This document shows, one piece after another, positions 1 through 38,647 of a DNA stretch of 39,232 bases; within the stretch, counting starts at the first letter, position 1; each line of letters begins with the position of its first letter. The stretch is from positions 1-39,232 of the forward strand of contig JAZRHS010000019.1 of the NCBI GenBank assembly GCA_045644865.1, given 5' to 3'. The position numbers were made by a program, and so were the translations under genes. This DNA comes from Eubacteriales bacterium. Its GTDB lineage: Bacteria; Bacillota; Clostridia; Oscillospirales; CAG-272. Under the pieces are notes generated by a model, which was given only the letters and a program-made list of their open reading frames with translations, made no database searches and was not told where the DNA came from.

Positions 1-48
1 TATATGTTAGTATCAATTTTTATATATAATTTTAGAAAGGGAAAAACA

Positions 49-138
49 ATGAGAAACACAAAGAAAACAACAAAAGCGTTACTTCTTGTGCTCGCTGTGG
101 TTATGGTTGTGGGCTTGTTTGCTGTCAGCGCGTTTGCT
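49..138 (+). other. Sec signal peptide (30 aa, predicted cleavage after SAFA)
   Basis: Basic n-region (RNTKKTTK), a hydrophobic core (ALLLVLAVVMVVGLFAV) and an AxA-like SAFA|AV cleavage site. Confidence 0.8.
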
Positions 139-13449: not shown

Positions 13450-13918
13450 GAAAATTAATATGTACGCCGCCAAGGCACTTGTTCTCTTTTTTGTTGCATC
13501 GGTGGCATTTACGGCGTTGTTTGTTTATTCGGGGGGCGGAATTTTTCGTTCTCCCACGGAGCTTGACGAGTATAATCTTTATTTTACTGTTAAGGATATT
13601 TCCGCAAACTCTGTTCGGTATTTCGTGGAAGGGGATATGGTTACGGCAGAAGGCGGAATTGTTCTTGGGGAGCTGAAGGGAATAGAGAAAATTGCGCCTG
13701 CGCAGGTGTATGTAACCAAGTCAGGCGGTGGAGTTGAAATTATTGAGTATCCCGAGAATTCACGGGTAGATGCGTATGGCAGTATATCGGCACGCGGTGT
13801 GAGTGCCGGCAGATTTTTGTTGGGCGGGGCAAAGCATATTGCTTCGGGAGATGTTTTTTCTGTGTCAACAGAGCATCTTGATGTAGTGCTTACAATAACA
13901 GAAATTGTCAAAAAATAA
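13442..13918 (+). CDS. N-terminally anchored small protein (158 aa), paralog-like partner of 12973..13449
   Basis: GGAGG RBS, the same 158-aa length and the same layout (N-terminal TM plus a beta-rich domain). It overlaps the upstream gene by 8 nt. Confidence 0.6.
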   Translation: MDKKINMYAAKALVLFFVASVAFTALFVYSGGGIFRSPTELDEYNLYFTVKDISANSVRYFVEGDMVTAEGGIVLGELKGIEKIAPAQVYVTKSGGGVEIIEYPENSRVDAYGSISARGVSAGRFLLGGAKHIASGDVFSVSTEHLDVVLTITEIVKK

Positions 13919-26057: not shown

Positions 26058-26399
26058 ATGGATATTATCAAGGCTTTTACAAGTGAGCAGCTTAAGGAGA
26101 ATGTTCCTACCGTTAATGTTGGTGATACAATTCGTGTTCACAACAAGATCAAGGAAGGATCTCGCGAAAGAGTTCAGATGTTCGAGGGTACCGTTATCGC
26201 AAAGCACGGCGGCGGCATTTCCGAGACATTCACCGTAAGACGCGTTTCTTACGGCTGTGGAGTGGAGAAGACATTCCCCATTCACTCTCCCAATGTTGAG
26301 AAGGTTGACATCATCCGCGTTGGTAAGGTAAGACGTGCAAAGCTTTACTATCTTCGTGATAGAGTTGGTAAGGCATCTAAGGTTAAAGAGAAGATATAA
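26058..26399 (+). CDS. rplS: 50S ribosomal protein L19
   Basis: [43 protein letters not shown] matches L19, and the protein is 113 aa. Confidence 0.97.
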
Positions 26400-26420
26400 G
26401 CTTCAAAAACCGAATAAAAA

Positions 26421-26455
26421 AGGTGTGAACGGCTTGTCCGGACACACCTTTTTTA
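26421..26455 (+). terminator. Terminator after rplS
   Basis: AGGTGTG...CACACCT (26421-27 / 26443-49) followed by TTTTTT. Confidence 0.85.
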
Positions 26456-26556
26456 TCTTTTTTGGGAATTTTGGAATTGTAAATATTGTTTGCGGTCGGT
26501 GAGCGGGAGAATGAAGAAAAAAGTTGTCAAATATTAAAAAAATTTTTAAAAATCTA

Positions 26557-26585
26557 TAGACATTTTAAGTAAAATATTATATAAT
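26557..26585 (+). promoter_or_regulatory. Candidate sigma-A promoter of the hydrogenase operon
   Basis: TAGACA (26557-62), a 17-nt spacer, then TATAAT (26580-85). An alternative is TTGTCA (26524-29), 17 nt, TAAAAA (26547-52). The region is AT-rich, so specificity is low. Confidence 0.45.
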
Positions 26586-26717
26586 ATAAAAGTATAGTTA
26601 TATGTAGAAGCGTATAACGCATAAAGCGCGGAGGCGGCGCAAGGCAAAAGCCCCTCGGCGAGAAATTATTTTTTTATCCGCGATAGTTAAAAAAATATCA
26701 ATCAGGAGGTACTATCA

Positions 26718-27212
26718 ATGAAAAAGAAATTGACGACAGTCGAATTTCGCGGCACAAAGGAGCAGGAAGAAAAGCTTCTTGAGGTGATTGCGAAGTACGA
26801 CGGTGTTCCCGGAAAGACAATGCCTATTCTCCAGGAAGCACAGGACATCTACGGATATCTTCCCATAGAGGTTCAGACAATAATTGCCGAAAAGACGGGT
26901 ATTCCGCTGGAGGAGATCTTCGGAATCGCGTCCTTCTACGCGCAGTTCAAGCTTAACCCCAACGGCGAGGTTTCGATTGCAGTTTGTCTTGGAACAGCGT
27001 GCTATGTAAAGGGCTCGGGCGAGATAATCGAGGAGTTCTCAAGGTTGCTTGATCTTCCCGTGGGCAGCACATCTCCCGATGGAAGATATTCTATCGAGGC
27101 AACTCGTTGCATCGGCGCTTGCGGACTTGCTCCCGTTCTTACTGTTAACGGTGATGTTTACGGAAGACTTACCAAGGCTGATGTTGCAGGAATACTTGAA
27201 AAGTATAGATAA
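26718..27212 (+). CDS. hydC: NuoE-like [2Fe-2S] subunit of the bifurcating hydrogenase (HydC/HndA-type)
   Basis: Thioredoxin-like 2Fe-2S fold with CLGTACYVKG...CIGACGLAP. AGGAGG RBS. Confidence 0.85.
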   Translation: MKKKLTTVEFRGTKEQEEKLLEVIAKYDGVPGKTMPILQEAQDIYGYLPIEVQTIIAEKTGIPLEEIFGIASFYAQFKLNPNGEVSIAVCLGTACYVKGSGEIIEEFSRLLDLPVGSTSPDGRYSIEATRCIGACGLAPVLTVNGDVYGRLTKADVAGILEKYR

Positions 27213-27262
27213 TTAAAATTTTCTTGATTTAATGGGTGCTATAGCGCCTTGGAGAAGAAATT

Positions 27263-27613
27263 ATGAAAATAGGTGAAATCAGAGATCTCTTGAACGCTGA
27301 AATCCTTACAGGCGAGGATATGCTTGACTGTGAGGTTTCGTCTGCATTTTGTTGCGATATGATGAGCGATGTTCTCGCGTATGTCAAGGATCAGGGCGTT
27401 CTTGTTACAGGTCTTGTTAATCCCCAGGTTGTTCGTACTGCAAATATGATGGATATAGTTTGCATCGTGTTTGTAAGAGGTAAAGCTCCTACAGAAGAAA
27501 TGCTTGAGCTTGCAAAGGAATGCGACATTGCTGTCCTGCTCACCGACAAGCGTGCGTTTGACACAAGCGGAATTCTTTATATGGCGGGTCTTTCAAGAAG
27601 CATAGAGGGTTAG
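27263..27613 (+). CDS. DRTGG domain protein (116 aa)
   Basis: A small alpha/beta protein. The region DVLAYVKDQGVLVTGLVNPQVVRTANMMDIVCIVFVRG matches the DRTGG-domain pattern. Confidence 0.65.
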   Translation: MKIGEIRDLLNAEILTGEDMLDCEVSSAFCCDMMSDVLAYVKDQGVLVTGLVNPQVVRTANMMDIVCIVFVRGKAPTEEMLELAKECDIAVLLTDKRAFDTSGILYMAGLSRSIEG

Positions 27614-27616
27614 ATT

Positions 27617-28039
27617 ATGTCAGAACCCTTAAGATTTCATTTCGATGTTGACGGCTCCGACTTTTCAAGCGCGGGCGCCGCATCGGTTATGGTTAAGAAA
27701 AAGCTGCGTCAGCTTGGCTATGATCCCGAGGTTATCCGAAAAGTTTCCATCGCTATGTATGAGGGTGAAATAAATATGGTTATTCACGCTAATGGCGGAA
27801 CTGCGGATGTAGAGGTGTCAGACGAGGAGATAGTTATAATCCTTTGCGACAAGGGACCCGGTATACCCGATGTTGAGTTGGCGATGCAGGCGGGATATTC
27901 CACCGCACACGATAATATCCGAAATCTCGGATTTGGCGCGGGAATGGGTATTCCAAATATGATGAAATATACAGACTATATGCATATTGATACTGTTGTA
28001 GGAGAGGGAACTACAGTTACCATGAAGGTTAATTTGTAG
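27617..28039 (+). CDS. GHKL-type ATPase, anti-sigma-factor/Ser-kinase-like (RsbW/SpoIIAB-like), no DHp domain
   Basis: N-box EGEINMVIHA, G1 box DKGPGIP and G2 box GFGAGMGIPN. At 140 aa there is no His phosphoacceptor domain. Confidence 0.75.
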   Translation: MSEPLRFHFDVDGSDFSSAGAASVMVKKKLRQLGYDPEVIRKVSIAMYEGEINMVIHANGGTADVEVSDEEIVIILCDKGPGIPDVELAMQAGYSTAHDNIRNLGFGAGMGIPNMMKYTDYMHIDTVVGEGTTVTMKVNL

Positions 28040-28073
28040 CCCACAAAAAATCAAATAAGCTATCGAGGTACAT

Positions 28074-29405
28074 ATGAAGGCTGCTTACAAACACTCGGTA
28101 TCACTTGATATTGGGAAATGCAAAGGCTGTACAGCCTGCCTTAAACGGTGCCCCACGGAGGCCATTCGAATTCACGAAGGTCATGCCGTGATCAATTCCG
28201 CCAGATGTATCGACTGCGGAGAGTGTATAAGAGTTTGCCCGTCAAAGGCAAAAAAGGCAACTCACGACAGTCTTTCTGTGCTTAATGATTACAAATATAC
28301 CGTGGCACTTCCCGCACCGTCCTTTTACGGGCAGTTTGACAATCTTGACAATATCGGTTATATCATTAAAGGTCTGTTAGACCTTGGCTTTGATGATGTT
28401 TTTGAGGTGGCGTGCGCAGCAGAGCTTGTGAGCGCATATACGCGAAAATACATAAATCGTGAAGATATTAAAAAGCCGATAATCAGTTCTGCCTGTCCGA
28501 CGATAACCAGGTTGATCAGCACCAATTACCCTTATTTGTGTGAAAATATTATGCCTATCCTTCCGCCCATAGATGTTGCGGCAATGCTTGCGCGTGAAAA
28601 GGCGCTTGAGGAGCATCCCGAGCTTGCGCCCGAGGATATAGGAATAATATTTATTTCACCTTGCCCCGCAAAGGTCAGCTATATAAAAAACAACTTTGCA
28701 GGGGAGAGAAATTACATTTCGGCAGTGCTTTCTGTACGAGATGTGTATTTCGCCTTGCTTGACAAAATGAAGAAGGGCGATGCCGAACCGATTGAAGCTA
28801 CAGAATCGGGTATTATAGGCATTGGCTGGGCATCTACAGGCGGAGAGTCCTCTGCCATACTTAATGACAGGTATCTTGCCGCTGACGGTATAGAGAACTG
28901 TATAAGAGTTCTTGACCAGATAGACAGTGCGGATATTACACATCTTGATTTTGTTGAGCTTAACGCGTGTAACGGCGGTTGTGTGGGCGGAGCAATGACG
29001 GTTGCCAATGCGTATATTGCGCAGGCGCGGCTTCAGTCGCTTAAGAGATATTTGCCCATTTCGCCTAACAGACCCGCAAGCGATTGGATTCCCGACAAAT
29101 ATTTCCACGAAAAGAAGGTTGAATATAATCCTTACAGCTCGTTGTCTTCAGACAGAAAGACGGCAATGCAGATGATGCGCGATATCGAGGAGCTTACCAA
29201 AAAGCTTCCCGGACTTGACTGCGGCTCTTGCGGAGCGCCTACCTGTATGGCTTTTGCCGAGGATGTTGTTAAAAAGGAAACCAGCGTTGATGAATGTACC
29301 GTTATTCTTAAGCGCACGCTCAAGGAGTACGGTATAGACAGAGAAATGCTTAACTCGCATCTTATGGATTTTAGAAAAGGGGGCGGCTCAAATGACGGTG
29401 AATGA
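28074..29405 (+). CDS. HydS-like degenerate [FeFe]-hydrogenase H-domain protein (putative sensory, group C-like) with N-terminal 2x[4Fe-4S] and a C-terminal extra Fe-S domain
   Basis: N-terminal clusters CKGCTACLKRCP and CIDCGECIRVCP. H-cluster motifs are SSACP (28485-99) versus TSCCP, SPCPAKVSY versus MPCxxKxxE, and ELNACNGGCVGGAMT (28956-29000) versus ExMACxxGCxxGGGQP. The C-terminal CGSCGAPTC...DEC (29220-97) resembles the RnfB/CdhD-type putative Fe-S domain. Confidence 0.75.
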   Translation: MKAAYKHSVSLDIGKCKGCTACLKRCPTEAIRIHEGHAVINSARCIDCGECIRVCPSKAKKATHDSLSVLNDYKYTVALPAPSFYGQFDNLDNIGYIIKGLLDLGFDDVFEVACAAELVSAYTRKYINREDIKKPIISSACPTITRLISTNYPYLCENIMPILPPIDVAAMLAREKALEEHPELAPEDIGIIFISPCPAKVSYIKNNFAGERNYISAVLSVRDVYFALLDKMKKGDAEPIEATESGIIGIGWASTGGESSAILNDRYLAADGIENCIRVLDQIDSADITHLDFVELNACNGGCVGGAMTVANAYIAQARLQSLKRYLPISPNRPASDWIPDKYFHEKKVEYNPYSSLSSDRKTAMQMMRDIEELTKKLPGLDCGSCGAPTCMAFAEDVVKKETSVDECTVILKRTLKEYGIDREMLNSHLMDFRKGGGSNDGE

Positions 29406-29724
29406 TGTTTGCAGGATCATTGATGCAAAGCCTGTTTGCGGAGAGCTGTCAAAGAGCTTTGACGGTGTGTATATCGGAGATCTTCTCAGCAGGGCTATGA
29501 GCCATGTTGAGAGTGATAATCTCTGGGTTACCATAATGTCAAATGTTAATGTTGTGGCTGTCGCTACTTTGACAGAGCCTGCGGCGATAATTCTTGCCGA
29601 GGGTGTAGAGCTTCAGGACGACGCCCTTGACGGTGCAAGAAAAAATCAGATAACCGTGATTTCAACCGAGCTTTCGGCATATGAGATCGCCGTTAAGCTG
29701 CACCAAGCGGCTTTGGGGATGTGA
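29392..29724 (+). CDS. DRTGG domain protein (110 aa), second copy
   Basis: IGDLLSRAMSHVESDNLWVTIMSNVNVVAVATLTEPAAIILAEG. The gene overlaps its upstream neighbour by 14 nt. Confidence 0.6.
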   Translation: MTVNDVCRIIDAKPVCGELSKSFDGVYIGDLLSRAMSHVESDNLWVTIMSNVNVVAVATLTEPAAIILAEGVELQDDALDGARKNQITVISTELSAYEIAVKLHQAALGM

Positions 29725-29725
29725 T

Positions 29726-30490
29726 ATGAATCTCTATCGGTGCGATCTTCATATCCATTCCTGTCTTTCTCCTTGCGGAGATGAGGATATGACCCCCGGT
29801 AATATAGTTGGAATGGCGCTTCTCAACGGGCTTGAGATAGTCGCGTTGACCGACCATAATACCACAAAAAACTGTCCCGCCTTTTATAAGCTTGCCAAGA
29901 CTCACGGAATTATTCCCGTGGCGGGTGTTGAGCTTACAACATCGGAGGACATTCATGCGGTCTGCCTTTTTCGCTCGCTTGAAGCGGCTATGGATTTTGG
30001 AGAGCTTATAGAAAGCAAAAGAATACGAATTAAAAACCAACCCGAAATTTTCGGAAGGCAGCTTATTGTTAATGAGAATGATGAGGTGTGCGGTGAGGAG
30101 GAGTACCTTCTTATAAACGCGATTAATCTCTCTCTTGATGAAGCCTTTCGTGAGGTAAGCAAGCGTGGCGGTGTGTGCTATCCTGCGCACATTGACAGAA
30201 GCGCAAACGGTATAATTTCGATGCTCGGTGCTTTTCCGCCCGAGCCCGAGTTTACCGTCTTTGAGCTTAAGGAGCTGTCGTCGCTTGACGAATACAGGGC
30301 AAGATTTCCTATATTAAATGAACGGGGCTTGACCTGTGTTGCGGCATCTGACGCCCATTACCTTACGGATATTTCCGAGAGAGGGTTTGAAATTGAGATT
30401 GAGGACGAGCCTTACTCGTCCGATGCCGTCAGAAATAATCTTATAGATTATCTGCTTGGAGTTAAGAAGGGCGGTGAAAAGAATGGATGA
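29726..30490 (+). CDS. PHP-domain metal-dependent phosphoesterase
   Basis: DLHIHSCLSPCGD...VALTDHNT...PAHIDR...ASDAH is the PHP His/Asp metal-ligand series. ATG 29726 lies 1 nt after the upstream TGA. The track start at 29681 overlaps the previous gene. Confidence 0.8.
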   Translation: MNLYRCDLHIHSCLSPCGDEDMTPGNIVGMALLNGLEIVALTDHNTTKNCPAFYKLAKTHGIIPVAGVELTTSEDIHAVCLFRSLEAAMDFGELIESKRIRIKNQPEIFGRQLIVNENDEVCGEEEYLLINAINLSLDEAFREVSKRGGVCYPAHIDRSANGIISMLGAFPPEPEFTVFELKELSSLDEYRARFPILNERGLTCVAASDAHYLTDISERGFEIEIEDEPYSSDAVRNNLIDYLLGVKKGGEKNG

Positions 30491-31040
30491 GTTTTCACTT
30501 TATGTTCTTGATATAACCATGAACTCTGTGAGAGCAGGGGCAAGTGAAATTCTTATTGAGCTTGTTGAAGATGGTGAATGGCTTACCTTTACAGTTACAG
30601 ATAACGGTTGCGGTATGACCGCGGAGCAGGTAGAAAAGCTTTCAAATCCTTTCTTTACCACAAGAACTACCCGCAAGGTGGGGCTTGGTGTTCCGTTTCT
30701 TAAAATGCTTGCGGAAATGACAGGCGGAGAGGTTAAGATCTCCTCTGTTCACGAATCAGTGTCAGTTGAGCACGGCACAACGATACAGGCAAGATTTGGC
30801 AGAAATCATATAGATTTCATTCCCCTTGGGGATATGACTGACACAATAAAAACACTTATTCAAGGAGCTCCCGATATTGATTTTACATATCGGCATATAA
30901 CTAAAAACGGGGAAGTGCTTCTTTCCTGTGCGGATATGAGAGAGATTCTCGGAGATATTCCCTTGAACGAGCCCGAGATACTGAAATGGATAGGCGAAAG
31001 CCTTAATGAGCAGTATAATGAGGTTCGTAAATTCGGTTAA
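30483..31040 (+). CDS. GHKL-type ATPase (histidine-kinase-like ATPase domain only)
   Basis: N-box NSVRAG, G1 box DNGCGM and G2 box GLGVPF. There is no DHp or sensor domain. An ATGGATGA overlap couples it to the PHP gene. Confidence 0.75.
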   Translation: MDEFSLYVLDITMNSVRAGASEILIELVEDGEWLTFTVTDNGCGMTAEQVEKLSNPFFTTRTTRKVGLGVPFLKMLAEMTGGEVKISSVHESVSVEHGTTIQARFGRNHIDFIPLGDMTDTIKTLIQGAPDIDFTYRHITKNGEVLLSCADMREILGDIPLNEPEILKWIGESLNEQYNEVRKFG

Positions 31041-31073
31041 AATTTTTTATATAAAAACGAAAGGATAATTACT

Positions 31074-31445
31074 ATGAAGTCACTTGAAGAGTTGAAGGCA
31101 ATAAAAGCCAAAATGCAGGACAAGGTTGCTCTGCGCACCTCCAGCGGCGACACCCGTATCGTAGTCGGAATGGCAACCTGCGGAATCGCGGCAGGAGCTC
31201 GTCCCGTTCTTAATGCGTTTGTTGAGGGCGTTGCAACAGCGGGAATCGGAGATAGCGTTATCGTTACACAGACAGGATGCATCGGTATCTGCCAGTATGA
31301 GCCTGTTGTTGAGGTTTACAAGGACGGCGCAGAAAAGGTTACTTATGTTAAGATGACCGCTGAGCGCGCAAAGGAAGTTCTTGAAAAGCACATCAAGGGC
31401 GGCGAGATCGTTACCGAGTATACCATTGGCGCATTTGAAAAGTAA
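31074..31445 (+). CDS. Thioredoxin-like [2Fe-2S] ferredoxin subunit
   Basis: VVGMATCGIAAGA...TGCIGICQYEPVV, in a 123-aa protein. Confidence 0.8.
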   Translation: MKSLEELKAIKAKMQDKVALRTSSGDTRIVVGMATCGIAAGARPVLNAFVEGVATAGIGDSVIVTQTGCIGICQYEPVVEVYKDGAEKVTYVKMTAERAKEVLEKHIKGGEIVTEYTIGAFEK

Positions 31446-31479
31446 TTCATAGAAAGTAAATTAGGAGGAATAAATACAA

Positions 31480-33303
31480 ATGATTCGTTCTCACGTACTT
31501 ATCTGCGGCGGTACAGGCTGTACCTCGTCCGGCAGTACGCTTCTTCGTGATAAGCTTGCTGAAGAGCTTAAGGCAAAGGGTCTTGAAGAAGAAATAAAGA
31601 TCGTTATGACAGGTTGTTTCGGACTTTGTGCGCTTGGTCCGATTATGATCGTATATCCCGAAGGCACATTCTACAGCAGAGTTACGGTTGAGGATATTCC
31701 CGAGATCGTTGACGAGCATCTTACAAAGGGTCGTATTGTTGAGCGTCTTGTTTACAATGATACAGGCGCGGAGAAGAACGAGGCAGTTGCTTCTTCTCTC
31801 AGCGAAACAATGTTCTACAAGAAGCAGCACCGTGTTGCGCTTCGTAACTGCGGTGTTATCAATCCCGAAGCTATTGAGGAGTATATCGCTATGGACGGCT
31901 ATTTCGCTCTCCATAAGGTTCTTACCGAGATGACTCCCGACGATGTTATTCAGACTATTCTTGATTCCGGACTTCGCGGACGCGGAGGCGGCGGATTCCC
32001 TACAGGTCTTAAGTGGAAGTTCGCTTCAAATAACCGTGGACAGGTTAAGAAGTATGTTGCTTGTAACGCTGACGAGGGCGACCCCGGTGCGTTTATGGAC
32101 CGTTCTATTCTTGAGGGAGATCCCCACGCTCTTATTGAGGCTATGGCTATCGCGGCTTATGCTATCGGTGCTGACGAGGGTTATGTTTATGTTCGTGCAG
32201 AGTATCCTATTGCCGTTCATCGCTTGAATGTTGCTATTGAGCAGGCAAGAGAAATGGGACTTCTTGGCGACGATATTTTTGGAACAGGATTTAAGTTCGA
32301 TATGCAGATCCGTCTTGGCGCAGGTGCGTTCGTGTGCGGTGAGGAAACAGCTCTTATGACCTCTATCGAGGGTAACAGAGGTGAGCCTCGTCCCCGTCCT
32401 CCTTTCCCTGCGGTAAAGGGTCTTTTCGGAAAGCCTACAGTTCTTAACAATGTTGAAACTTACGCAAATATTCCTCAGATCATTCTTAAGGGCGCTGATT
32501 GGTTCTCCTCTATGGGAACCGAGAAGTCCAAGGGTACTAAGGTGTTCGCTCTTGGCGGTAAGATCCAGAATACAGGTCTTGTTGAAATTCCTATGGGTAC
32601 AACTCTTCGTGAGGTCGTTGAGGAGATCGGCGGCGGTATTCCTAACGGAAAGAAGTTTAAGGCTGCACAGACAGGCGGACCTTCCGGCGGATGTATTCCC
32701 GCGCATCTTATTGATACCCCCATCGACTACGATAACCTTCTTGCCATTGGCTCTATGATGGGCTCGGGCGGACTTATCGTTATGGATGAGGACAACTGTA
32801 TGGTTGATATCGCTAAGTTCTTCCTTGAGTTCACAGTTGATGAGTCCTGCGGTAAGTGCACACCCTGCCGCGTAGGTACAAAGCGCCTTCTTGAAATTCT
32901 TGATAAGATCATTTCGGGTAAGGGCGAGCTTGAGGACCTTGACCGAATGGAAGAGCTTTGCAACTACATAAAGAGCGCATCTCTTTGCGGTCTTGGACAG
33001 ACTGCTCCCAACCCTGTAATTTCTACTCTTCGTTACTTCAAGGACGAGTATATCGCTCATATCGTTGACAAGAAGTGTCCCGCAGGTGTATGTAAGAGCC
33101 TTCTTCAGTATTCTATTGATCAGGATAAGTGTATCGGTTGCGGACTTTGCGCGAAGAATTGTCCCGCAGACGCTATTACAAAGACAACATATATTGCTCC
33201 CGGACACAAGCTTCCCTCTATGGCAATCGATACAGCTAAGTGCGTGAAGTGCGGAGCTTGTCTTGACAGCTGTAAGAAGATCAAGGCTATTTCCAAGAAG
33301 TAA
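31480..33303 (+). CDS. hydB: NuoF-like flavoprotein subunit of the bifurcating hydrogenase (HydB/HndC-type)
   Basis: N-terminal 2Fe-2S (CGGTGC...GCFGLCALGP), FMN/NADH motifs (GLRGRGGGGFPTGLKW), an N3-type cluster (SCGKCTPCRVG) and a C-terminal 2x[4Fe-4S] (CIGCGLCAKNCP, CVKCGACLDSC). Confidence 0.92.
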   Translation: MIRSHVLICGGTGCTSSGSTLLRDKLAEELKAKGLEEEIKIVMTGCFGLCALGPIMIVYPEGTFYSRVTVEDIPEIVDEHLTKGRIVERLVYNDTGAEKNEAVASSLSETMFYKKQHRVALRNCGVINPEAIEEYIAMDGYFALHKVLTEMTPDDVIQTILDSGLRGRGGGGFPTGLKWKFASNNRGQVKKYVACNADEGDPGAFMDRSILEGDPHALIEAMAIAAYAIGADEGYVYVRAEYPIAVHRLNVAIEQAREMGLLGDDIFGTGFKFDMQIRLGAGAFVCGEETALMTSIEGNRGEPRPRPPFPAVKGLFGKPTVLNNVETYANIPQIILKGADWFSSMGTEKSKGTKVFALGGKIQNTGLVEIPMGTTLREVVEEIGGGIPNGKKFKAAQTGGPSGGCIPAHLIDTPIDYDNLLAIGSMMGSGGLIVMDEDNCMVDIAKFFLEFTVDESCGKCTPCRVGTKRLLEILDKIISGKGELEDLDRMEELCNYIKSASLCGLGQTAPNPVISTLRYFKDEYIAHIVDKKCPAGVCKSLLQYSIDQDKCIGCGLCAKNCPADAITKTTYIAPGHKLPSMAIDTAKCVKCGACLDSCKKIKAISKK

Positions 33304-33320
33304 GAAAGGAGAACCCAACT

Positions 33321-35069
33321 ATGGAAACAGTAAATATTAAAATAAATGGTATGGATTATGCCGTTCCTCAGGGTTCGACAGTCCTTGAAGCAGCACGCGC
33401 TGCAAAGATAGAGATCCCCACACTTTGCTACCTTAAGGACATCAACGCAATCGGTGCTTGCCGTCTTTGCCTTGTTGAGGTTTCCGAGGGCGGCAGACCC
33501 TTCAGAATGGTTACAGCCTGCGTATATCCTGTAACAGAAGGAATGGAGGTTCTTACAAATACTCCCAAGATTATTAAGTCCAGAAAGCTTAACCTTGAGC
33601 TTGTGCTTTCTAACCACGATAAGAAGTGCCTTTCCTGTAACCGTAACACAACCTGCGAGCTTCAGAAGCTTTGTAACGAGTACGGCGTAGACGAAAGCCA
33701 TTTCAAGGGAGAGATGAATAAGTACGATATCGACGAATCCTCTCCTATTATCCGTGATAATAACAAATGTATCCTTTGCCGCCGCTGTGTTGCGGTATGC
33801 TCCAAGGTACAGGGCATTGGGGTTATCGGAGCAAACGACCGCGGATTTGACACACACATTGCTTCCGCGTTTGAAACAAAGCTTGCTGATAATGCTTGTA
33901 TCAACTGCGGGCAGTGCATCGTTGCTTGTCCCACAGGTGCTCTTTATGAAAGAGATGATACAGATAAGGTTATGGAGGCTATTGCCGATCCTACAAAGAA
34001 GGTATATATCTGCACCGCTCCCTCGGTACGCGCTCAGATCGGTGAGTGCTTTGGCTACGAGCCCGGCACAGATGTTGAGGGCAAGATGGTTGCGGCTATC
34101 AAGCGTCTTGGCTTTGACGGTGTGTTCGATATGAACCTTACCGCTGACCTTACTATTATGGAAGAGGCAACAGAGTTCCTTGGCAGAGTCAAGAACGGCG
34201 GAGCACTTCCTATGATCACTTCCTGTTCTCCCGGATGGATCAAGTTCTGTGAGCACTACTATCCCGAGATGACAGAGAACCTTTCTACTTGTAAATCTCC
34301 TCAGCAGATGTTTGGTGCGCTTGTAAAGACCTACTTTGCTGAAAAAGAGGGAATTGACCCCAAGGATATTTTCTTCGTGTCCGCAATTCCTTGTACCGCA
34401 AAGAAGTTTGAGGTTGGCCGCGACGGTCAGTCTGCAGCAGGTGTTCCCGATGTTGATGTTGCAATTACAACTCGCGAGCTTGGCAGAATGATTCAGAAGG
34501 CGGGTATCAAGTTCAGACAGCTTGATGACGAAGCTTTTGATACTCCTTTTGATATCGGATCCAGCGCAGGTGTTATCTTCGGTGCGACAGGCGGTGTTAT
34601 GGAGGCGGCTCTCCGTACAGCGGCTGAGGTTATCGAGGGTAAGCCTTTAGAGAAGCTTGAGTTTAACGATGTAAGAGGAACAGAGGGCGTTAAGCTTGCT
34701 TCCTATAAGCTTGGCGATATTACTCTTAATGTTGCGGTTGCAAGCGGAACTGCTAACGCAAGAAAGCTCCTTGACGATGTCAAGGCAGGCAAAGTTGATG
34801 TACAGTTTATCGAGGTTATGGCATGTCCCGGCGGTTGTGTAAACGGAGGTGGACAGCCTCACCAGCCCGTTGAGGTAAGAGAAACTGTTGACCTTCGTGC
34901 AGTTCGCGCGGCAGTTCTTTATAACGATGACGCTAAGGCTGACCTTAGAAAGTCCCACGAGAACTCGGCAGTAAAGAAGCTCTATGACGAGTACTTCGGA
35001 GAACCCAACAGCCACAAGGCTCACGAAATTCTCCATACGCACTATGTAAAGCGCGGTCTTTACAAATAA
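33321..35069 (+). CDS. hydA: [FeFe]-hydrogenase catalytic subunit, group A3 (HydABC bifurcating type)
   Basis: N-terminal plant-type 2Fe-2S, a His-ligated 4Fe-4S, then 2x[4Fe-4S] (CILCRRCVAVC, CINCGQCIVACP). H-cluster motifs are TSCSPGW, IPCTAKKFE and EVMACPGGCVNGGGQP. A C-terminal small-subunit-like tail is present. The protein is 582 aa. Confidence 0.92.
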   Translation: METVNIKINGMDYAVPQGSTVLEAARAAKIEIPTLCYLKDINAIGACRLCLVEVSEGGRPFRMVTACVYPVTEGMEVLTNTPKIIKSRKLNLELVLSNHDKKCLSCNRNTTCELQKLCNEYGVDESHFKGEMNKYDIDESSPIIRDNNKCILCRRCVAVCSKVQGIGVIGANDRGFDTHIASAFETKLADNACINCGQCIVACPTGALYERDDTDKVMEAIADPTKKVYICTAPSVRAQIGECFGYEPGTDVEGKMVAAIKRLGFDGVFDMNLTADLTIMEEATEFLGRVKNGGALPMITSCSPGWIKFCEHYYPEMTENLSTCKSPQQMFGALVKTYFAEKEGIDPKDIFFVSAIPCTAKKFEVGRDGQSAAGVPDVDVAITTRELGRMIQKAGIKFRQLDDEAFDTPFDIGSSAGVIFGATGGVMEAALRTAAEVIEGKPLEKLEFNDVRGTEGVKLASYKLGDITLNVAVASGTANARKLLDDVKAGKVDVQFIEVMACPGGCVNGGGQPHQPVEVRETVDLRAVRAAVLYNDDAKADLRKSHENSAVKKLYDEYFGEPNSHKAHEILHTHYVKRGLYK

Positions 35070-35078
35070 TAGAAAATT

Positions 35079-35107
35079 AAGAGGGTGATTTTTTCACCCT
35101 CTTTTTT
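35079..35107 (+). terminator. Terminator of the hydrogenase operon
   Basis: AAGAGGGTGA-TTTTT-TCACCCTCTT followed by a T-run. Confidence 0.85.
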
Positions 35108-35116
35108 CAAAAGCTA

Positions 35117-35145
35117 TTGACAACAATATGCTGGCGTGGTATAAT
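35117..35145 (+). promoter_or_regulatory. Consensus sigma-A promoter of the gntR-ABC operon
   Basis: TTGACA (35117-22), a 17-nt spacer, then extended -10 TGgTATAAT (35137-45). Confidence 0.75.
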
Positions 35146-35176
35146 TTAACTGTACTAATACATATAGTACAGTTAA
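35146..35176. promoter_or_regulatory. Perfect inverted-repeat operator, likely the YtrA/GntR autoregulatory site
   Basis: TTAACTGTACTA (35146-57), a 7-nt spacer, then TAGTACAGTTAA (35165-76). The 12-bp arms are perfect and abut the -10, covering the expected transcription start. The GT...AC core is typical of GntR operators. Confidence 0.65.
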
Positions 35177-35192
35177 GAAGGGAGGAAACTAA

Positions 35193-35561
35193 ATGCTTGT
35201 AGTAGACAAAATGTCAAGAACTCCGATATACGAACAGATAGAAGAGGGAATAAAGCGCGAGATAATCACGGGAATACTCAAGGAACGCGAGCAGCTTCCT
35301 TCAATAAGAGAACTCTCGGTGATACTTGCCACAAACCCTAATACTGTTCAAAAAGCGTTTATGAGGCTTGATCAAGATGGAATTATCATTTCAAGCCCGG
35401 GGCGAGGCTGCTTTGTTGCTGAAAATGCTGTTCAAAGGATAAGAGAGGGGCTTAAAAGCAAGATAGACGAGATAAGGGAGCTTGCAAGAGCTCTTTCAAA
35501 TGCGGGGATAGAAGAAAGCCTTGTGCTTGAGGCAATTAAAGCGTCCTATAAGTCAAAATAA
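35193..35561 (+). CDS. GntR-family transcriptional regulator, YtrA subfamily
   Basis: PIYEQIEEGIKREIITG.L....LPSIRELS..L..NPNTVQKAF..L...G is a winged-HTH region. The short 122-aa length fits the YtrA type. Confidence 0.9.
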   Translation: MLVVDKMSRTPIYEQIEEGIKREIITGILKEREQLPSIRELSVILATNPNTVQKAFMRLDQDGIIISSPGRGCFVAENAVQRIREGLKSKIDEIRELARALSNAGIEESLVLEAIKASYKSK

Positions 35562-35580
35562 GCGAGAAAGGGAGAATGTT

Positions 35581-36480
35581 ATGATTTGCGCGAAAGATTT
35601 AACTATGAAATTTGATGATTTTACTGCGCTTAAGCAGATGAACTGTAAAATCCCCGAGGCTTGTATTTACGGTCTTGTGGGTAGTAACGGCGCGGGAAAA
35701 TCCACTTTTTTAAGACTTATAAGCGGTATATACCGTCCCAATAGTGGTGAGGTAACAATAGACGGCAAACCCGTTTATGAAAATCCTGAGGTCAAAAGTA
35801 AAATACTTTATGTACCCGACGAGCTTTATTTCCTGCCTCAGTCAAATATGAACAGAATGGCGGAGCTTTACAGCTCGATATACAAAAACTTCAGCTATGA
35901 GCGTTTTGAAAATCTGACAAAGACCTTCGGGCTTGACCCCAAGGCTAATATAAACACCTTTTCAAAGGGAATGAAGCGTCAGGCGGCTACAATTCTGGCT
36001 CTTTCCTCAATGCCCGAATTTCTCTTTTTTGACGAAACCTTTGACGGTCTTGACCCTGTAATGAGAAACCTTGTAAAGCAGGTAATATACAACGATGTTA
36101 TGGAGAGAAAAACCACAACAATAATAACATCTCATTCGCTTCGTGAGCTTGAGGACACCTGCGACCAGCTTGCTCTGCTTCATAAGGGCGGAATTGTGTT
36201 TGAAAGCGATATACAAGACCTTAAAACCGCATTGTTTAAGGTGCAGGTGGCGTTTAACACAGAATATTCCAAGGAGCGATTTGCAGGTATTGAAATGCTT
36301 GATTATAACCAGATGGGTTCGGTGGCAACCTTTATTGCAAGAGGCGACAAGAACGAGGTCGTGGCTAAAATTCGCGCCCTTGAGCCTGTGCTTTTAGATG
36401 TGCTTCCGCTTAATCTTGAGGAAGTCTTCATCTATGAAATGGAAGCTCTTGGGTATGCCTTTAAGGAAATTCTTATGTAA
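35581..36480 (+). CDS. ABC transporter ATP-binding protein
   Basis: Walker A GSNGAGKST, signature-like FSKGMKRQ, Walker B LFFDETFDGLD and H-loop TSHS. ATG 35581 follows AAGGGAG. The track start at 35521 overlaps the gntR gene. Confidence 0.9.
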   Translation: MICAKDLTMKFDDFTALKQMNCKIPEACIYGLVGSNGAGKSTFLRLISGIYRPNSGEVTIDGKPVYENPEVKSKILYVPDELYFLPQSNMNRMAELYSSIYKNFSYERFENLTKTFGLDPKANINTFSKGMKRQAATILALSSMPEFLFFDETFDGLDPVMRNLVKQVIYNDVMERKTTTIITSHSLRELEDTCDQLALLHKGGIVFESDIQDLKTALFKVQVAFNTEYSKERFAGIEMLDYNQMGSVATFIARGDKNEVVAKIRALEPVLLDVLPLNLEEVFIYEMEALGYAFKEILM

Positions 36481-36487
36481 GGAGGAT

Positions 36488-38647
36488 ATGACTGTGGCAA
36501 ATTTCTTTTCTAAAAACTTATATGTTCAGGGCTTGAAGAAAATAAAGATAAGCGGAATAGCCTTCTCGCTGATAATAATTCTTCTTAACGCCTTTTTACC
36601 TATTATAGGAATAATCGACGGCAGCTCCGATCATCTTTCATACAGCAGTCAGCTTGTGGAATACAATATGGTAGTGCCGTTTTGCTTGCTTATAGTGGGG
36701 CTTGTTCCTATTCTTGCTCACGATATGTTTTCTTTTCTTAACGAGCGAAGCCAGTCCGACTTTTACCACTCAATACCCCAAAAGAGGACTTGTGTTTATG
36801 TCAGCTTCACCTTGGCGGTTATCACTTGGGCGTTTGGTACTATAATTTCAAGCACGGTTATAAACACTCTGCTTTGGAGTTTGGCGAGAGCCTATACATT
36901 TACCTTTGGCACAATAATTCTCGGTATGCTTCCGTATCTTGTGCTTGCTGTGCAGATGGCAGGCGTAATGATACTTGCCATGACGGTAACGGGAACTAAA
37001 ATATCCAATTTTCTTGTCGCGATACTCTTCTTCCTGTTTTTCCGTGTAATGAGCGCTTTTTGCATAGCGTCTATTGATGCCGTGTCCAATGTTGTAAATG
37101 TTGACTTTGGTGTGTTCAAGTATTTTGGAATTGAATTTTTCCTTCCCGCGGCATTGCTTATAGGTGTTTTTGACGGGGAGGCGTCGGTTTATATTGATGC
37201 GGTGCTTCAGATATATTCCTTGCTTGTGGGAATCGGCTTGCTTGCTCTTGGCGGATTTGCATATAACAATCGCCGCAGTGAAATCGCCACAAAGAGCGCT
37301 CCCAGCAAAAGGCTTCAGCATATTTACCGCTTTGCCGTAACTCTTCCGTTTGTATTTTTAGTGGCGTTTTCGATAATAAATGACGGTTTCAGGTCCTACC
37401 AGATAATTTTGGTGATAATCGCAATTCTTGTGTATGTTCTTTACGAGCTTATTACCACCAAAAAGATAAAAAATGTGGTAAAATCCTTGCCGCTTATGGT
37501 CATTCCTTTGGCTGCAACCCTGCTTATGGTTAGCGGAATTTTCTGTGTCAGAAACGCTATAAACAATTATCGTTTTGATCCTGACGAGGTTGACGGATTT
37601 TGCTTTGTAAATTCCTATTCCAACACATACGAAACGCTTATGACCAATAAGGTTTATGCTGAAGGCGACAAAGCAGGAGAAATACTTGCCGATGCACTTG
37701 AATACTCGGTTAACAAAGCCGAGTACGGCTATCAGCATACCACTTTTGAGCGTGTTCTTATCAAACTTGACAGCGGAAGAATTGTTGCGAGAAATCTTTA
37801 TATACTTGACGATGAATATGAGGAGCTTGTTAATATAATGAACAATTCCTCGGAATATCGCTCGGCTTATCTTAATATTCCTCACCCCGACGATATTTCA
37901 AGCGCGGGTTGTTATAATAATTTTGACAAGGCGCAATCAAAGAAAATTTACAGAGTTTTTTATGAGGAGTATAATTCGCTGTCCACCGCAGAAAAAATGC
38001 TTGTAAAGAAGCCACGCGGAGAGTATGTGAGTGTAGGAAACATTCATATTTCGGGCTATCTTAACAGACAAAGCTATAGCTCGTATTACAATATCGTATT
38101 TGACCTTCTTCCAAAAACCGCTCTTGCTTATATAGAGATGATGAAAGATAATAACGGGCGCGTATATTGGGGGTCTAATGTTGAGATTGCTTATAATACC
38201 CTTAATTCCCACAAGTCGCAGATTGAAGATATGGAGCTTACCTACTGCTACGGCAGTTTGACTGTTTCCAAGGTTGCGGGGACTTTTGAGGACGGACGAG
38301 TTGAACAAAAATATGATATTAAAAATGTCCCGACTATCCTTGCGGCATATGAGTTTGTTGATATTTTAGCCAATGATGAAAGCACCTTTGACTATAGCGA
38401 CCCGCAAAATCTTTACAGGGTAAGATTGCAAATCGAGGCGGGCTTTTTGGTGGACACTCAAACGGTTAATCTTAACCCCGAGCACACCGTTACAGACCTT
38501 CTTGAAGCGTCGTCTGTTCAGGTTATACCCGATAAGGAGGTATATTATGAGGACGGTATTTACCTCAGTGAGGAGTTCTTCGTGAATATAAGCGAGGAAA
38601 ATATGGTTAGAATAATCGAGCTTATGTTAAAAGCAAATGAACAGTAA
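36488..38647 (+). CDS. Polytopic membrane protein (putative ABC-2-type permease) with a C-terminal soluble domain of about 340 aa
   Basis: ATG 36488 follows AAGGAGGA. There are about 9-10 hydrophobic segments up to about aa 380, then a hydrophilic region with no motif I recognise. The operon position after the ATPase suggests the permease role. Confidence 0.65.
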   Translation: MTVANFFSKNLYVQGLKKIKISGIAFSLIIILLNAFLPIIGIIDGSSDHLSYSSQLVEYNMVVPFCLLIVGLVPILAHDMFSFLNERSQSDFYHSIPQKRTCVYVSFTLAVITWAFGTIISSTVINTLLWSLARAYTFTFGTIILGMLPYLVLAVQMAGVMILAMTVTGTKISNFLVAILFFLFFRVMSAFCIASIDAVSNVVNVDFGVFKYFGIEFFLPAALLIGVFDGEASVYIDAVLQIYSLLVGIGLLALGGFAYNNRRSEIATKSAPSKRLQHIYRFAVTLPFVFLVAFSIINDGFRSYQIILVIIAILVYVLYELITTKKIKNVVKSLPLMVIPLAATLLMVSGIFCVRNAINNYRFDPDEVDGFCFVNSYSNTYETLMTNKVYAEGDKAGEILADALEYSVNKAEYGYQHTTFERVLIKLDSGRIVARNLYILDDEYEELVNIMNNSSEYRSAYLNIPHPDDISSAGCYNNFDKAQSKKIYRVFYEEYNSLSTAEKMLVKKPRGEYVSVGNIHISGYLNRQSYSSYYNIVFDLLPKTALAYIEMMKDNNGRVYWGSNVEIAYNTLNSHKSQIEDMELTYCYGSLTVSKVAGTFEDGRVEQKYDIKNVPTILAAYEFVDILANDESTFDYSDPQNLYRVRLQIEAGFLVDTQTVNLNPEHTVTDLLEASSVQVIPDKEVYYEDGIYLSEEFFVNISEENMVRIIELMLKANEQ

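Follow-up and report, generated by a model that had tools for sequence, protein, structure and literature searches.

The window analysed here (the whole stretch of 39,232 nucleotides) carries a gene, hydS, which, judged from its sequence, almost certainly codes for a Group D (M2e) [FeFe] hydrogenase and is an ordinary member of this described family. The gene lies in a ten-gene block which also encodes a bifurcating hydrogenase (Table 1). The best overall explanation, and in our view a likely one, is that HydS adopts an H2-dependent state which is read by co-encoded proteins and which tunes the bifurcating hydrogenase. As to HydS itself, we lean towards an H2-sensing or regulatory role. In the literature, the role of Group D enzymes is called putative, and physiological proof of H2 sensing is available for none of them (PMC8924675, PMC13104023).

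Table 1. Features of the hydS region and of the HydS protein, with positions in the window
Feature	Position	Strand	Basis
hydC, NuoE-like [2Fe-2S] subunit of bifurcating hydrogenase	26718..27212	+	Pfam 2Fe-2S_thioredx, E 2e-45; 49% identity to Thermoanaerobacter orthologue
DRTGG-domain protein 1 (116 aa), a predicted partner of HydS	27263..27613	+	Pfam DRTGG; orthologue in L001/L006
SpoIIAB-like GHKL ATPase / serine-kinase-like protein (HATPase_c_2), 140 aa	27617..28039	+	Pfam; NCBIfam spIIAB
hydS, Group D (M2e) [FeFe] hydrogenase (almost certain assignment), 443 aa	28074..29405	+	Single ORF with ATG start; Pfam; TamHydS match; AF2 model
HydS N-terminal F-domain, two [4Fe-4S] motifs: CKGCTACLKRCP (C16/19/22/26) and CIDCGECIRVCP (C45/48/51/55)	28119..28241	+	Pfam; motif reading
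HydS L1, ISSACPT, residues 137-143	28482..28502	+	A140 at proton-relay C299 CpI (A137 Tam); C141 = [4Fe-4S]H ligand
HydS L2, SPCPAKVSY, residues 195-203	28656..28682	+	S195 at M353 CpI; C197 = C355; K200 = K358; Y203 replaces E361
Alternative proton path of Group D type in HydS: T255 (S249Tam), E258 (E252Tam), D271 (D265Tam), E295 (E289Tam)	28836..28958	+	Alignment mapping
HydS L3, ELNACNGGCVGGAMT, residues 295-309	28956..29000	+	C299 = C499 CpI; C303 = C503, bridging; N297 at M497; GGAM replaces GGGQP
HydS C-terminal [4Fe-4S] motif Cx2Cx4Cx16C (C383, C386, C391, C408), PF04060	29220..29297	+	CGSCGAPTC...DEC, residues 383-408
DRTGG-domain protein 2, 110 aa	29392..29724	+	Pfam DRTGG; start overlaps hydS stop by 14 nt
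PHP-domain metal-dependent phosphoesterase	29726..30490 likely (longest ORF from 29681)	+	Pfam PHP; DLHIHS motif; 42% identity to Thermoanaerobacter orthologue
Stand-alone histidine-kinase-type CA domain protein	30483..31040 likely (longest ORF from 30456)	+	Pfam HATPase_c; without DHp domain
hydD, small thioredoxin-like [2Fe-2S] protein	31074..31445	+	Profile searches; Thermoanaerobacter orthologue
hydB, NuoF-like flavin/NAD subunit	31480..33303	+	68-70% identity to Thermoanaerobacter/Thermoanaerobacterium HydB
hydA, Group A catalytic [FeFe] hydrogenase, bifurcating HydABC type	33321..35069	+	NCBIfam FeFe_hydrog_A6, 858 bits (cut-off 765); E 8e-211 to A. woodii HydA1, 7q4v

Pfam matches in HydS comprise a pair of [4Fe-4S] modules (two Fer4 matches, residues 11-60), Fe_hyd_lg_C (residues 74-307, E 4.9e-31), and PF04060 (residues 378-409, E 2.2e-14). 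A PAS domain is not detected by Pfam, and 35 residues remain past C408. The absence of PAS and the C-terminal Fe-S motif had already been recognized in a first-pass annotation made from the sequence alone. The N-terminal di-cluster domain was not mentioned there. Its eight cysteines are invariant among 80 diverse relatives, and all 80 of these have the identical domain set. Neither these relatives nor the ten longest members checked among the 150 nearest clusters contain PAS. Relatives of 515-607 aa were considered as candidates for PAS-bearing Group C proteins, and this was rejected: they are DRTGG or HATPase_c_2 fusions. More than 8000 homologues were scored, with 416 clusters at 50% identity having E<=1e-30, and on this sequence comparison the resemblance of HydS to its homologues is far beyond chance.

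An AF2 model computed with 80 diverse sequences as input has a pLDDT of 92.9; an earlier model, for which 26 close homologues had been used, reached only 46.7 and was discarded. Foldseek relates the model to CbA5H, DdHydAB, TmHydA, and CpI (probability 1.00, TMq 0.60-0.67). These values are scores without residue pairs, and the correspondence of the cysteines rests on sequence and profile alignments.

The model enzyme of Group D / M2e is HydS from T. mathranii (TamHydS, WP_013150113), the biochemistry of which has been reported from 2019 to 2026 (PMC6984386, PMC8163306, PMC10407848, PMC11803613, PMC13104023). HydS from the window shows 44% sequence identity to TamHydS over 416 aa (E 1e-121). 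Its scores are 349-372 bits against Group D proteins (371 against Thermoanaerobacter HydS) and 67-70 bits against Group A HydA, these pairwise scores serving as a proxy for its placement in clade D. The two proteins are similar in length (443 vs. 435 aa), have the three-domain architecture in common, and are both devoid of PAS. They also share Ala at C299(CpI), Ser at M353(CpI), a proton path of Glu, Glu, Asp, and a hydroxyl residue, the Cx2Cx4Cx16C motif, and the acidic C-terminal residues. Such a combination of features, to which the first-pass annotation had drawn attention, is not unusual: Group D has been defined by it in the literature (PMC8163306). M2e genes were catalogued in clostridial genomes in 2012, as monomeric sensory hydrogenases encoded upstream of trimeric bifurcating hydrogenases (PMC3561251). 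The organisms with "D M2e" genes in that catalogue include C. thermocellum (Cthe_0335) and strains of Thermoanaerobacter and Caldicellulosiruptor.

The TamHydS sequence was available as a machine-read version of the supporting information of PMC6984386, which has 434 instead of 435 aa and in which 5 of 20 published residue numbers are mismatched. Tam numbering was taken via L003, the 435-aa orthologue from T. thermocopriae. In L003, every one of the 20 residues to which the TamHydS papers refer is found at its published number, and the transfer of the numbering to HydS is thus considered sound. The Thermoanaerobacter genomes used for comparison are close relatives at 94-97%; T. mathranii itself was not returned.

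The register of the H-domain was obtained from HMMER alignments to solved [FeFe] hydrogenases, with which a MAFFT alignment including HydA from the window agrees. HMMER pairs ISSACPT with TSCCPSW, ISPCPAK with MPCIAK, and ELNACNGGCVGGA with EIMACVGGCIGGG. In these sequence alignments, the four H-cluster cysteines of HydS (C141, C197, C299, C303) correspond to C300, C355, C499, and C503 of CpI. All motifs quoted in the first-pass annotation are present in the ORF translation at their exact positions, and the alignments agree with its reading of an [FeFe]-hydrogenase homologue which has kept the H-cluster ligands while the Group A proton relay is gone.

Conservation was analyzed in an alignment of 111 sequences, including 109 diverse cluster representatives. 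At the proton-relay position, Ala (37), Ser (23), Phe (17), and Thr (10) occur, with Cys absent from the six most frequent residues, while the adjacent C141 is kept in 110 of the 111 sequences. The position of M353(CpI) is occupied by a hydroxyl residue in 95 of the 111 sequences (Thr in 52, Ser in 43); Ser/Thr at this position is a well-conserved hallmark of M2e (PMC8163306). An alternative proton path has been defined for Group D (E252, E289, S249, and D265 in Tam numbering, with Ser/Thr preferred at 249; PMC10407848). Of its counterparts in HydS, E258 is conserved in 83, D271 in 77, and E295 in 101 of the 111 sequences.

With the Group A enzymes CpI, DdHydAB, CrHydA1, and HydA from the window, HydS has in common the H-domain fold, the four H-cluster cysteines, and Lys358. 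It differs from them in overall sequence (20-25% identity), in the absence of the proton path C299-E279-S319-E282-R286, in the replacement of M353, M497, and GGGQP, in having no small-subunit-like C-terminal tail, and in its extra C-terminal Fe-S domain. The exchange of the Group A second-sphere residues (C299, M353, M497, E361, GGGQP) could also be read as degeneration, which would make HydS an Fe-S-only protein without the [2Fe] subsite, such as a Nar1/NARF-like scaffold or a redox/O2 sensor. The scores with NCBIfam hydrogenase models, which are far under the cut-offs (132 vs. 450; FeFe_hydrog_A 85.6 vs. 405.95 bits), point in the same direction. We consider this highly improbable, since the four H-cluster cysteines, K200 (K358 CpI), and P196 are not only kept but near-invariant in the family, and since TamHydS at 44% identity takes up [2Fe]adt spontaneously, shows Hox/Hred signatures in FTIR and EPR, and turns over H2 (PMC6984386, PMC8163306).

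By analogy to TamHydS, the Group D enzyme from the window would bind a normal H-cluster. Its turnover of H2 would be lower than in Group A by a factor of roughly a thousand, its affinity for H2 would be higher, and it would work with an overpotential. CO/O2 tolerance would be a further trait expected of a Group D enzyme. The first-pass annotation had expected a slow or non-catalytic sensory hydrogenase. In the literature, this type is regarded as slow and putatively sensory, H2 evolution by TamHydS being about a thousand-fold under that of Group A (PMC11803613, PMC8163306). TamHydS is bidirectional with a Km(H2) of about 0.1 mM, and one N-terminal cluster is reduced by H2 (PMC10407848, PMC13104023). 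In HydS, H2 may likewise reduce the H-cluster and an N-terminal cluster, upon which the conformation of the protein would change.

Several positions differ between the two proteins: R32Tam is replaced by H34, K35Tam by H37, E122Tam by K125, K126Tam by R129, S384Tam by A388, and D403Tam by E407. In addition, HydS has N297 where TamHydS has L291Tam (at M497 CpI), and GGAM where TamHydS has GGPL. Conserved charged residues at the N-/C-interface and near the clusters are, in Tam numbering, R30, R32, K35, K58, D378, E392, D393, and D403. Of their counterparts in HydS, R32, K60, D382, E396, and D397 are kept, while H34, H37, and E407 are changed; His at the positions of R32Tam and K35Tam is rare in the family. 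The changed sites corresponding to R32Tam, K35Tam, E122Tam, and D403Tam are among those proposed to matter in TamHydS. The hosts also differ, that of HydS being a mesophilic gut Clostridia organism and that of TamHydS a thermophile.

Group C (M2f) is represented by T. maritima HydS (TmHydS), R. albus HydS, and T. saccharolyticum HfsB. Its members resemble HydS in having two N-terminal [4Fe-4S] clusters, Ala in place of the proton-relay Cys, and a C-terminal four-Cys cluster; as for Group D, their activity is low and their genes adjoin Group A hydrogenase genes (PMC8163306, PMC13104023, PMC3561251). At M353 and M497, TmHydS has Gly and Ser (PMC8163306), whereas HydS has Ser and Asn. The first-pass annotation had viewed the Fe-S domain as present "instead of" PAS. 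This does not hold, because Cx2Cx4Cx16C is carried by Group C (e.g., TmHydS) as well as by Group D, and in Group C a PAS domain has been added downstream of the shared motif (PMC8163306, PMC13104023). HydS is devoid of this addition, and where Group C has PAS, the C-terminal extension in Group D relatives is DRTGG.

The same annotation had pointed out that the C-terminal motif is of the RnfB/CdhD type, and PDB matches bear out its resemblance to RnfB and CdhD/AcsC (RnfB, 9eri_B 43-77; corrinoid Fe-S protein, 4djd_C 7-45). From this similarity a redox relay had been proposed, in which an H2-sensing HydS would signal to its partners by electron transfer via the RnfB-type [4Fe-4S] cluster. The motif is indeed homologous to electron-transfer modules, each of its four cysteines is kept in 106-108 of 111 sequences, fused DRTGG domains come directly after it, and the cluster is close to the N-terminal clusters in an AF2 model of TamHydS (PMC13104023). 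Experiments with TamHydS nevertheless make such a redox relay unlikely: 1 atm H2 at pH 6-8 leaves the C-terminal cluster oxidised, and only a strong photoreductant reduces it; variant C379A, in which it is converted to [3Fe-4S], is similar to wild type with hardly altered catalysis; and the change in secondary structure brought about by H2 does not depend on whether this cluster is oxidised or reduced (PMC13104023). The flanking acidic residues, which are thought to hold the potential very low, are kept here as D382, E396, D397, and E407 (TamHydS counterparts of the acidic and Cys residues: D378/C379, E392/D393, D403/C404; PMC13104023). Also, according to Pfam, the partner proteins have no Cys motif for an Fe-S cluster or another redox cofactor.

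The genes of the block are arranged in the order hydC-[DRTGG-ATPase-hydS-DRTGG-PHP-ATPase]-hydD-hydB-hydA, with hydS four genes upstream of hydB-hydA. Such a setting, ahead of a trimeric or tetrameric bifurcating Group A hydrogenase and beside kinase-like genes, is the usual one for Group D (PMC3561251, PMC8163306). No intergenic gap exceeds 50 nt, and with the longest-ORF starts there are overlaps at three junctions. Each of the ten genes is matched one-to-one by an orthologue of the Thermoanaerobacter locus. The genes which flank hydS upstream of hydB-hydA have the same order there, but hydC is found past the PHP gene rather than at the head of the block. In a closer relative, the block occurs in unchanged order with different flanks. 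The complete block is thus conserved from thermophilic Thermoanaerobacter to mesophilic gut Clostridia.

For the HATPase_c_2 protein, the best PDB match is anti-sigma F factor, and the N, G1, and G2 boxes for ATP binding are kept; its NCBIfam spIIAB score is 56.8 bits (cut-off 135). The stand-alone HATPase_c protein is most similar to the CA domains of KinB and ZraS, while for the PHP protein a sequence search of the PDB gave no relative. Pfam, NCBIfam, and PDB matches revealed no DNA-binding protein, sigma factor, response regulator, or DHp/His phospho-acceptor in the block.

In contigs from bovine gut metatranscriptomes, the depth of the regulatory block is about 10-100x under that of hydC and hydDBA, a contrast which may be inflated because the conserved hydB and hydA recruit contigs of other taxa at 88% likeness. 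With these caveats, the low depth fits a regulator. Contig "joints" in these data most likely reflect cross-alignment among related organisms.

In all loci compared, hydS lies within the hydABCD gene block. Together with the bidirectional catalysis of TamHydS, its Km(H2), and the reduction of an N-terminal cluster by H2, this could indicate that HydS is not a sensor but a module which assists HydABC(D) in catalysis or as a point of electron entry, for example, a high-affinity site which takes up H2 and feeds the bifurcating enzyme. Such a function appears improbable to us in view of the slow turnover of TamHydS and the overpotential that it needs (PMC11803613). Furthermore, the interleaved genes code for kinase-like ATPases, DRTGG proteins, and a phosphoesterase rather than for redox proteins, and the surveyed fusions link HydS to signalling-type proteins but never to HydA, HydB, or HydC. 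The solved complexes 7q4w, 8a6t, and 7p5h, which were matched in the structure search, carry HydABC in their entry titles, with HydS unnamed. The transcript coverage of the hydS region, which is much under that of the structural genes, also argues against such a module, subject to the caveats given above.

Returning to a regulatory HydS, fusion proteins give an indication of its partners. HydS-DRTGG fusions, with DRTGG protein 2 at the HydS C-terminus, occur in seven clusters at 50% identity, DRTGG-HydS fusions in two (DRTGG protein 1 at the HydS N-terminus in P0157 and P0198), and a HATPase_c_2-HydS fusion in one (P0153). Assembly or frameshift artefacts were considered and rejected, as the fusions recur on numerous independent contigs, which reach 515 kb, and are present in an NCBI isolate record too. 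Because HydS is fused to DRTGG or to the SpoIIAB-like ATPase in other genomes, the neighbouring genes are taken to encode physical partners, and we moderately favour the view that the DRTGG proteins and the SpoIIAB-like ATPase are direct partners of HydS. As suggested by gene order, overlaps, and fusions, these proteins would bind HydS and read its H2-dependent state. On the same basis, the PHP phosphoesterase and the second ATPase may complete a putative phosphorylation/dephosphorylation switch which would tune the adjacent HydABC(D).

The accessory genes resemble SpoIIAB/SpoIIAA/SpoIIE modules in that a small GHKL ATPase, closest to SpoIIAB, is encoded together with small single-domain proteins and a phosphoesterase. 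They differ in having DRTGG instead of STAS and PHP instead of PP2C, and a sigma factor is absent from the block. The likeness to partner switching is thus an analogy, and for the accessory genes only. We tentatively propose that the Group D H2 signal might be transmitted not by PAS and a histidine kinase but by a dedicated, previously undescribed module (two DRTGG proteins, the SpoIIAB-like ATPase, the PHP protein, and the CA domain), which would dock on HydS and control the bifurcating hydrogenase by partner-switching phosphorylation, possibly post-translationally. A literature search returned no paper which ties DRTGG domains to hydrogenases.

How a hydrogenase without PAS signals is a central question of the HydS field, and the fusions, by pointing to likely direct partners, make it accessible to experiment. 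In NCBI, close relatives of HydS carry only the name "4Fe-4S dicluster domain-containing protein", and the scores with NCBIfam hydrogenase models all stay under the respective cut-offs. Group D sensors may thus be under-counted in surveys of hydrogen metabolism in gut and rumen.

A scan for promoters and terminators resulted in counts not above those for shuffled sequence. Two individual sites are suggestive: a promoter-like site with 11 of 12 matching positions (26557-26585) upstream of hydC, and a stem-loop (35079-35103, called on the minus strand) just past hydA.

HydS of the window is encoded by a single plus-strand ORF of 443 aa (ORF listing). Pfam assigns residues 11-60 to an N-terminal ferredoxin-like domain with 2x[4Fe-4S], residues 74-307 to the H-domain (Fe_hyd_lg_C, E 4.9e-31), and residues 378-409 to PF04060, "Putative Fe-S cluster" (E 2.2e-14); a PAS domain was not found by Pfam. 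The motifs quoted in the first-pass annotation are indeed present in the translation (see table). HMMER aligns them on TSCCPSW, MPCIAK, and EIMACVGGCIGGG of solved [FeFe] hydrogenases, and a MAFFT alignment against the window's own Group A HydA, whose gene lies 4 kb downstream, yields the identical register. Because the two registers agree, we assign C141, C197, C299, and C303 as H-cluster ligands. The proton-relay Cys position is occupied by A140, and GGAM is found where GGGQP is expected. Both alignments thus uphold the earlier reading that the four H-cluster Cys are kept, the proton-relay Cys is replaced by Ala, and GGGQP is absent. The C-terminal motif does resemble those of RnfB and the corrinoid Fe-S protein, as noted earlier (HMMER against solved structures).

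An AlphaFold2 model computed from an 80-member diverse alignment (pLDDT 92.9, pTM 0.90) matches CbA5H, DdHydAB, T. maritima HydA, and CpI with a Foldseek probability of 1.00 and TMq 0.60-0.67; among the matches listed, none is described as Group C or Group D. No NCBIfam model is passed (FeFe_hydrog_B1, 132 bits with a cut-off of 450; FeFe_hydrog_A, 86 bits with a cut-off of 406), and close relatives are labeled by NCBI only as "4Fe-4S dicluster domain-containing protein."

The combination of features had been taken as unusual but corresponds to the published definition of M2e (Group D) [FeFe] hydrogenases: two N-terminal [4Fe-4S] motifs; an H-domain in which C299 (CpI numbering) is missing and M353 has given way to Ser or Thr; and, at the C-terminus, Cx2Cx4Cx16C with no PAS domain (PMC8163306). 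The window HydS shows 44% sequence identity over 416 residues (E 1e-121) to TamHydS, the Thermoanaerobacter mathranii protein that serves as the Group D model enzyme. The TamHydS sequence was taken from the SI of PMC6984386, a machine-read copy with small errors: it has 434 rather than 435 aa, lacks E27 and a P near the C-terminus, has an extra residue near 250, and from about residue 250 to 290 its numbering is shifted by one. Because of these errors, orthologues from genomes were used for numbering, with the 435-aa HydS from T. thermocopriae (L003), which has every one of the 20 residues that the TamHydS papers name, as reference. An alternative proton path (TamHydS E252, E289, S249, D265) has been reported as a feature of Group D alone (PMC10407848), and all four of its positions are represented in the window HydS, that of S249 by Thr. 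Judged from its sequence, the window HydS is almost certainly a Group D (M2e) [FeFe] hydrogenase in a canonical locus, an uncharacterised member of a well-described kind.

Features of the window HydS and of the ten-gene block (Tam and CpI, residue numbering of TamHydS and CpI)
Feature	Window HydS residues	Window coordinates	Remark
L1 motif ISSACPT	137-143		
L2 motif SPCPAKVSY	195-203		
L3 motif ELNACNGGCVGGAMT	295-309		
C-terminal motif CGSCGAPTC-x16-C	383-408		
A137 Tam (C299 CpI)	A140		alignment via L003
M353 CpI	S195		
K358 CpI	K200		
S249 Tam	T255		
E252 Tam	E258		
D265 Tam	D271		
E289 Tam	E295		
M497 CpI	N297		
D378/C379 Tam	D382/C383		
E392/D393 Tam	E396/D397		
C404 Tam	C408		
Gene 1, hydC		26718-27212	NuoE-like
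Gene 2, DRTGG protein 1			
Gene 3, HATPase_c_2			SpoIIAB-like GHKL ATPase
Gene 4, hydS		28074..29405 (+)	
Gene 5, DRTGG protein 2			
Gene 6, PHP phosphoesterase			
Gene 7, HATPase_c			stand-alone histidine-kinase-type ATP-binding domain
Gene 8, hydD			small 2Fe-2S protein
Gene 9, hydB			NuoF-like
Gene 10, hydA		33321-35069	Group A, NADH-dependent/bifurcating type; NCBIfam 858 bits, cut-off 765

A search of 1.84 billion cluster representatives with the window HydS returned 416 clusters at E<=1e-30. Conservation was counted for 109 full-length representatives (alignment of 111 sequences). Of the 111 sequences, 109-110 retain the four H-cluster Cys and 106-108 the four C-terminal Cys. The C299 (CpI) position is occupied by A, S, F, or T, and that of M353 by T or S in 95 sequences; Glu is found at the E258 and E295 positions in 83 and 101 sequences, respectively, and Asp at the D271 position in 77. 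The Pfam architecture is common to all 80 members of the diverse alignment, with PAS in none of them. The window HydS differs from TamHydS in having H34 and H37, residues seldom found there in the family, in place of R32 and K35, for which interdomain salt bridges and tuning of the N-terminal clusters have been proposed. It also has K125 in place of E122, the sole Group A proton-path residue retained by TamHydS, and E407 in place of D403, while N297 occupies a position that is poorly conserved in the family. As far as can be judged from the alignments, these departures are minor and leave the classification unaffected.

TamHydS incorporates [2Fe]adt to form a normal H-cluster. Its interconversion of H+ and H2 needs an overpotential and is about a thousandfold slower than that of Group A enzymes; its Km for H2 is lower (~0.1 mM) and it tolerates CO and O2 better. 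Upon exposure to H2, the H-cluster and one N-terminal cluster are reduced, and H2 also sets off a secondary-structure change (PMC8163306, PMC10407848, PMC11803613, PMC13104023). As the residues implicated in these properties are kept, we infer that the window HydS would behave in the same way. A redox relay through the C-terminal cluster, which had been suggested, is contradicted for TamHydS: H2 does not reduce the cluster, the C379A variant is close to wild type, and the H2-induced structural change is independent of the redox state of this cluster (PMC13104023). The acidic residues thought to keep its potential low are conserved in the window HydS, as D382, E396, D397, and E407. Nor does the Fe-S domain stand "instead of" a PAS domain, as this four-Cys motif is also present in Group C enzymes, where PAS follows it (PMC8163306, PMC13104023).

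The hydS gene lies within a tight same-strand block (26718 to 35069) in which no gap exceeds 50 nt. If the longest ORFs are taken, there are overlaps at hydS/DRTGG2, DRTGG2/PHP, and PHP/HATPase_c; with the preferred starts, two of the three remain. The longest ORFs of the PHP and HATPase_c genes (29681-30490 and 30456-31040) probably overshoot the true starts at 29726 and 30483: ATG 29726 directly follows the DRTGG2 stop, ATG 30483 overlaps the PHP stop, and both agree with the gene lengths in locus L010 (246 and 185 aa) and with the Thermoanaerobacter orthologues. The same genes are found in a Thermoanaerobacter locus (L001) whose HydS is 94% identical to the published TamHydS, and each of the ten window proteins has a one-to-one orthologue in it (39-69% identity). 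The only rearrangement concerns hydC, which is located between the PHP and HATPase_c genes in L001 (10523-11005) but is the first gene of the block in both the window and L010. Because L010, from a closer relative (HydS 83% identical), has the identical gene order with quite different flanking genes, we consider the ten-gene block to be a unit.

This arrangement has been known since at least 2012: in the list of Carere et al., hydrogenases classed as "D M2e," monomeric and sensory, lie five genes away from trimeric bifurcating ones (TTE0887 and TTE0892-0894; Cthe_0335 and Cthe_0340-0342; Csac_1857; Athe_1292; Teth39_1463); the label "sensory" was based on protein kinases nearby (PMC3561251). 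TamHydS is likewise encoded near protein kinase genes (Land et al., PMC8163306). The sensory role proposed in the first-pass annotation matches current opinion, which is itself still putative. The window genome belongs to spore-forming Clostridia (SpoIVA is present) and occurs in gut metagenomes. The closest match of the small ATPase is SpoIIAB, the anti-sigma-F serine kinase, and its ATP-binding boxes N, G1, and G2 are conserved. The second ATPase consists of a kinase CA domain and lacks DHp, and in the PHP protein the DxHxH motif near the N-terminus is retained.

Long forms among the 150 nearest HydS cluster representatives are domain fusions, not PAS proteins. Seven clusters carry a C-terminal DRTGG domain (P0143, P0145, P0151, P0255, P0265, P0222, P0263), usually most similar to the downstream DRTGG2; this domain holds the place occupied by PAS in Group C. 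At the N-terminus, a DRTGG1-like domain is found in two clusters (P0157, P0198) and the HATPase_c_2 protein in one (P0153). All these fusion partners are encoded by separate neighbors of hydS in the window. The 533-aa HydS-DRTGG cluster comprises 80 members, whose contigs reach 515 kb, and a DRTGG-HydS fusion is also present in one NCBI isolate record; recurrence on many independent contigs, together with the isolate record, rules out assembly artefacts as the source. Gene fusion is a classical sign that the unfused proteins interact. We thus consider it rather likely that the DRTGG proteins and the SpoIIAB-like ATPase are direct signalling partners of HydS. A search of the accessible literature found no paper connecting DRTGG domains with hydrogenases, and at this locus only the fusion evidence for these partners is to some degree novel.

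We thus propose that HydS is the H2-binding receptor in an assembly with the SpoIIAB-like ATPase and the DRTGG proteins, through which the neighboring HydABCD enzyme would be adjusted by means of a kinase/phosphoesterase switch. Since neither a DNA-binding protein nor a sigma factor nor a response regulator was found within the ten-gene block, the output may lie at the post-translational level. Contigs from two bovine gut metatranscriptomes (>=88% alike, span 26300-35300) give hydC and hydD/hydB/hydA a depth of 30-1200 and the six-gene regulatory block (27263-31040) only 0.4-11. This contrast fits a low-copy regulator, but contig depth is a poor measure of expression, and the difference may partly result from contigs of other taxa cross-mapping to the more conserved structural genes.

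In the window HydA, L1 (residues 300-306) reads TSCSPGW rather than TSCCPxW, with Ser at the position of CpI C300, a [4Fe-4S]H ligand, and Ile is found at the M353 position (residue 356, IPCTAKKFE). TSCSPGW is shared by A. woodii HydA1, whose structure has been solved (7q4v/7q4w, E 8e-211), and has been remarked upon in Melainabacteria hydrogenases (PMC3787301); T. kivui HydA1 (8a6t), unlike the window HydA, has TSCCPSW. Elsewhere in the window, no Pfam match at E<=1e-5 was obtained for a 158-aa ORF (13442-13918, +) and a 749-aa ORF (36398-38647, +), the latter directly 3' of an ABC-transporter ATPase gene (35521-36480). A 3121-aa ORF (4-9369, +), which begins at the left end of the window and has the carbohydrate-binding module CBM96 (residues 2411-2583) as its only Pfam match, presumably codes for a giant surface or glycan-binding protein.
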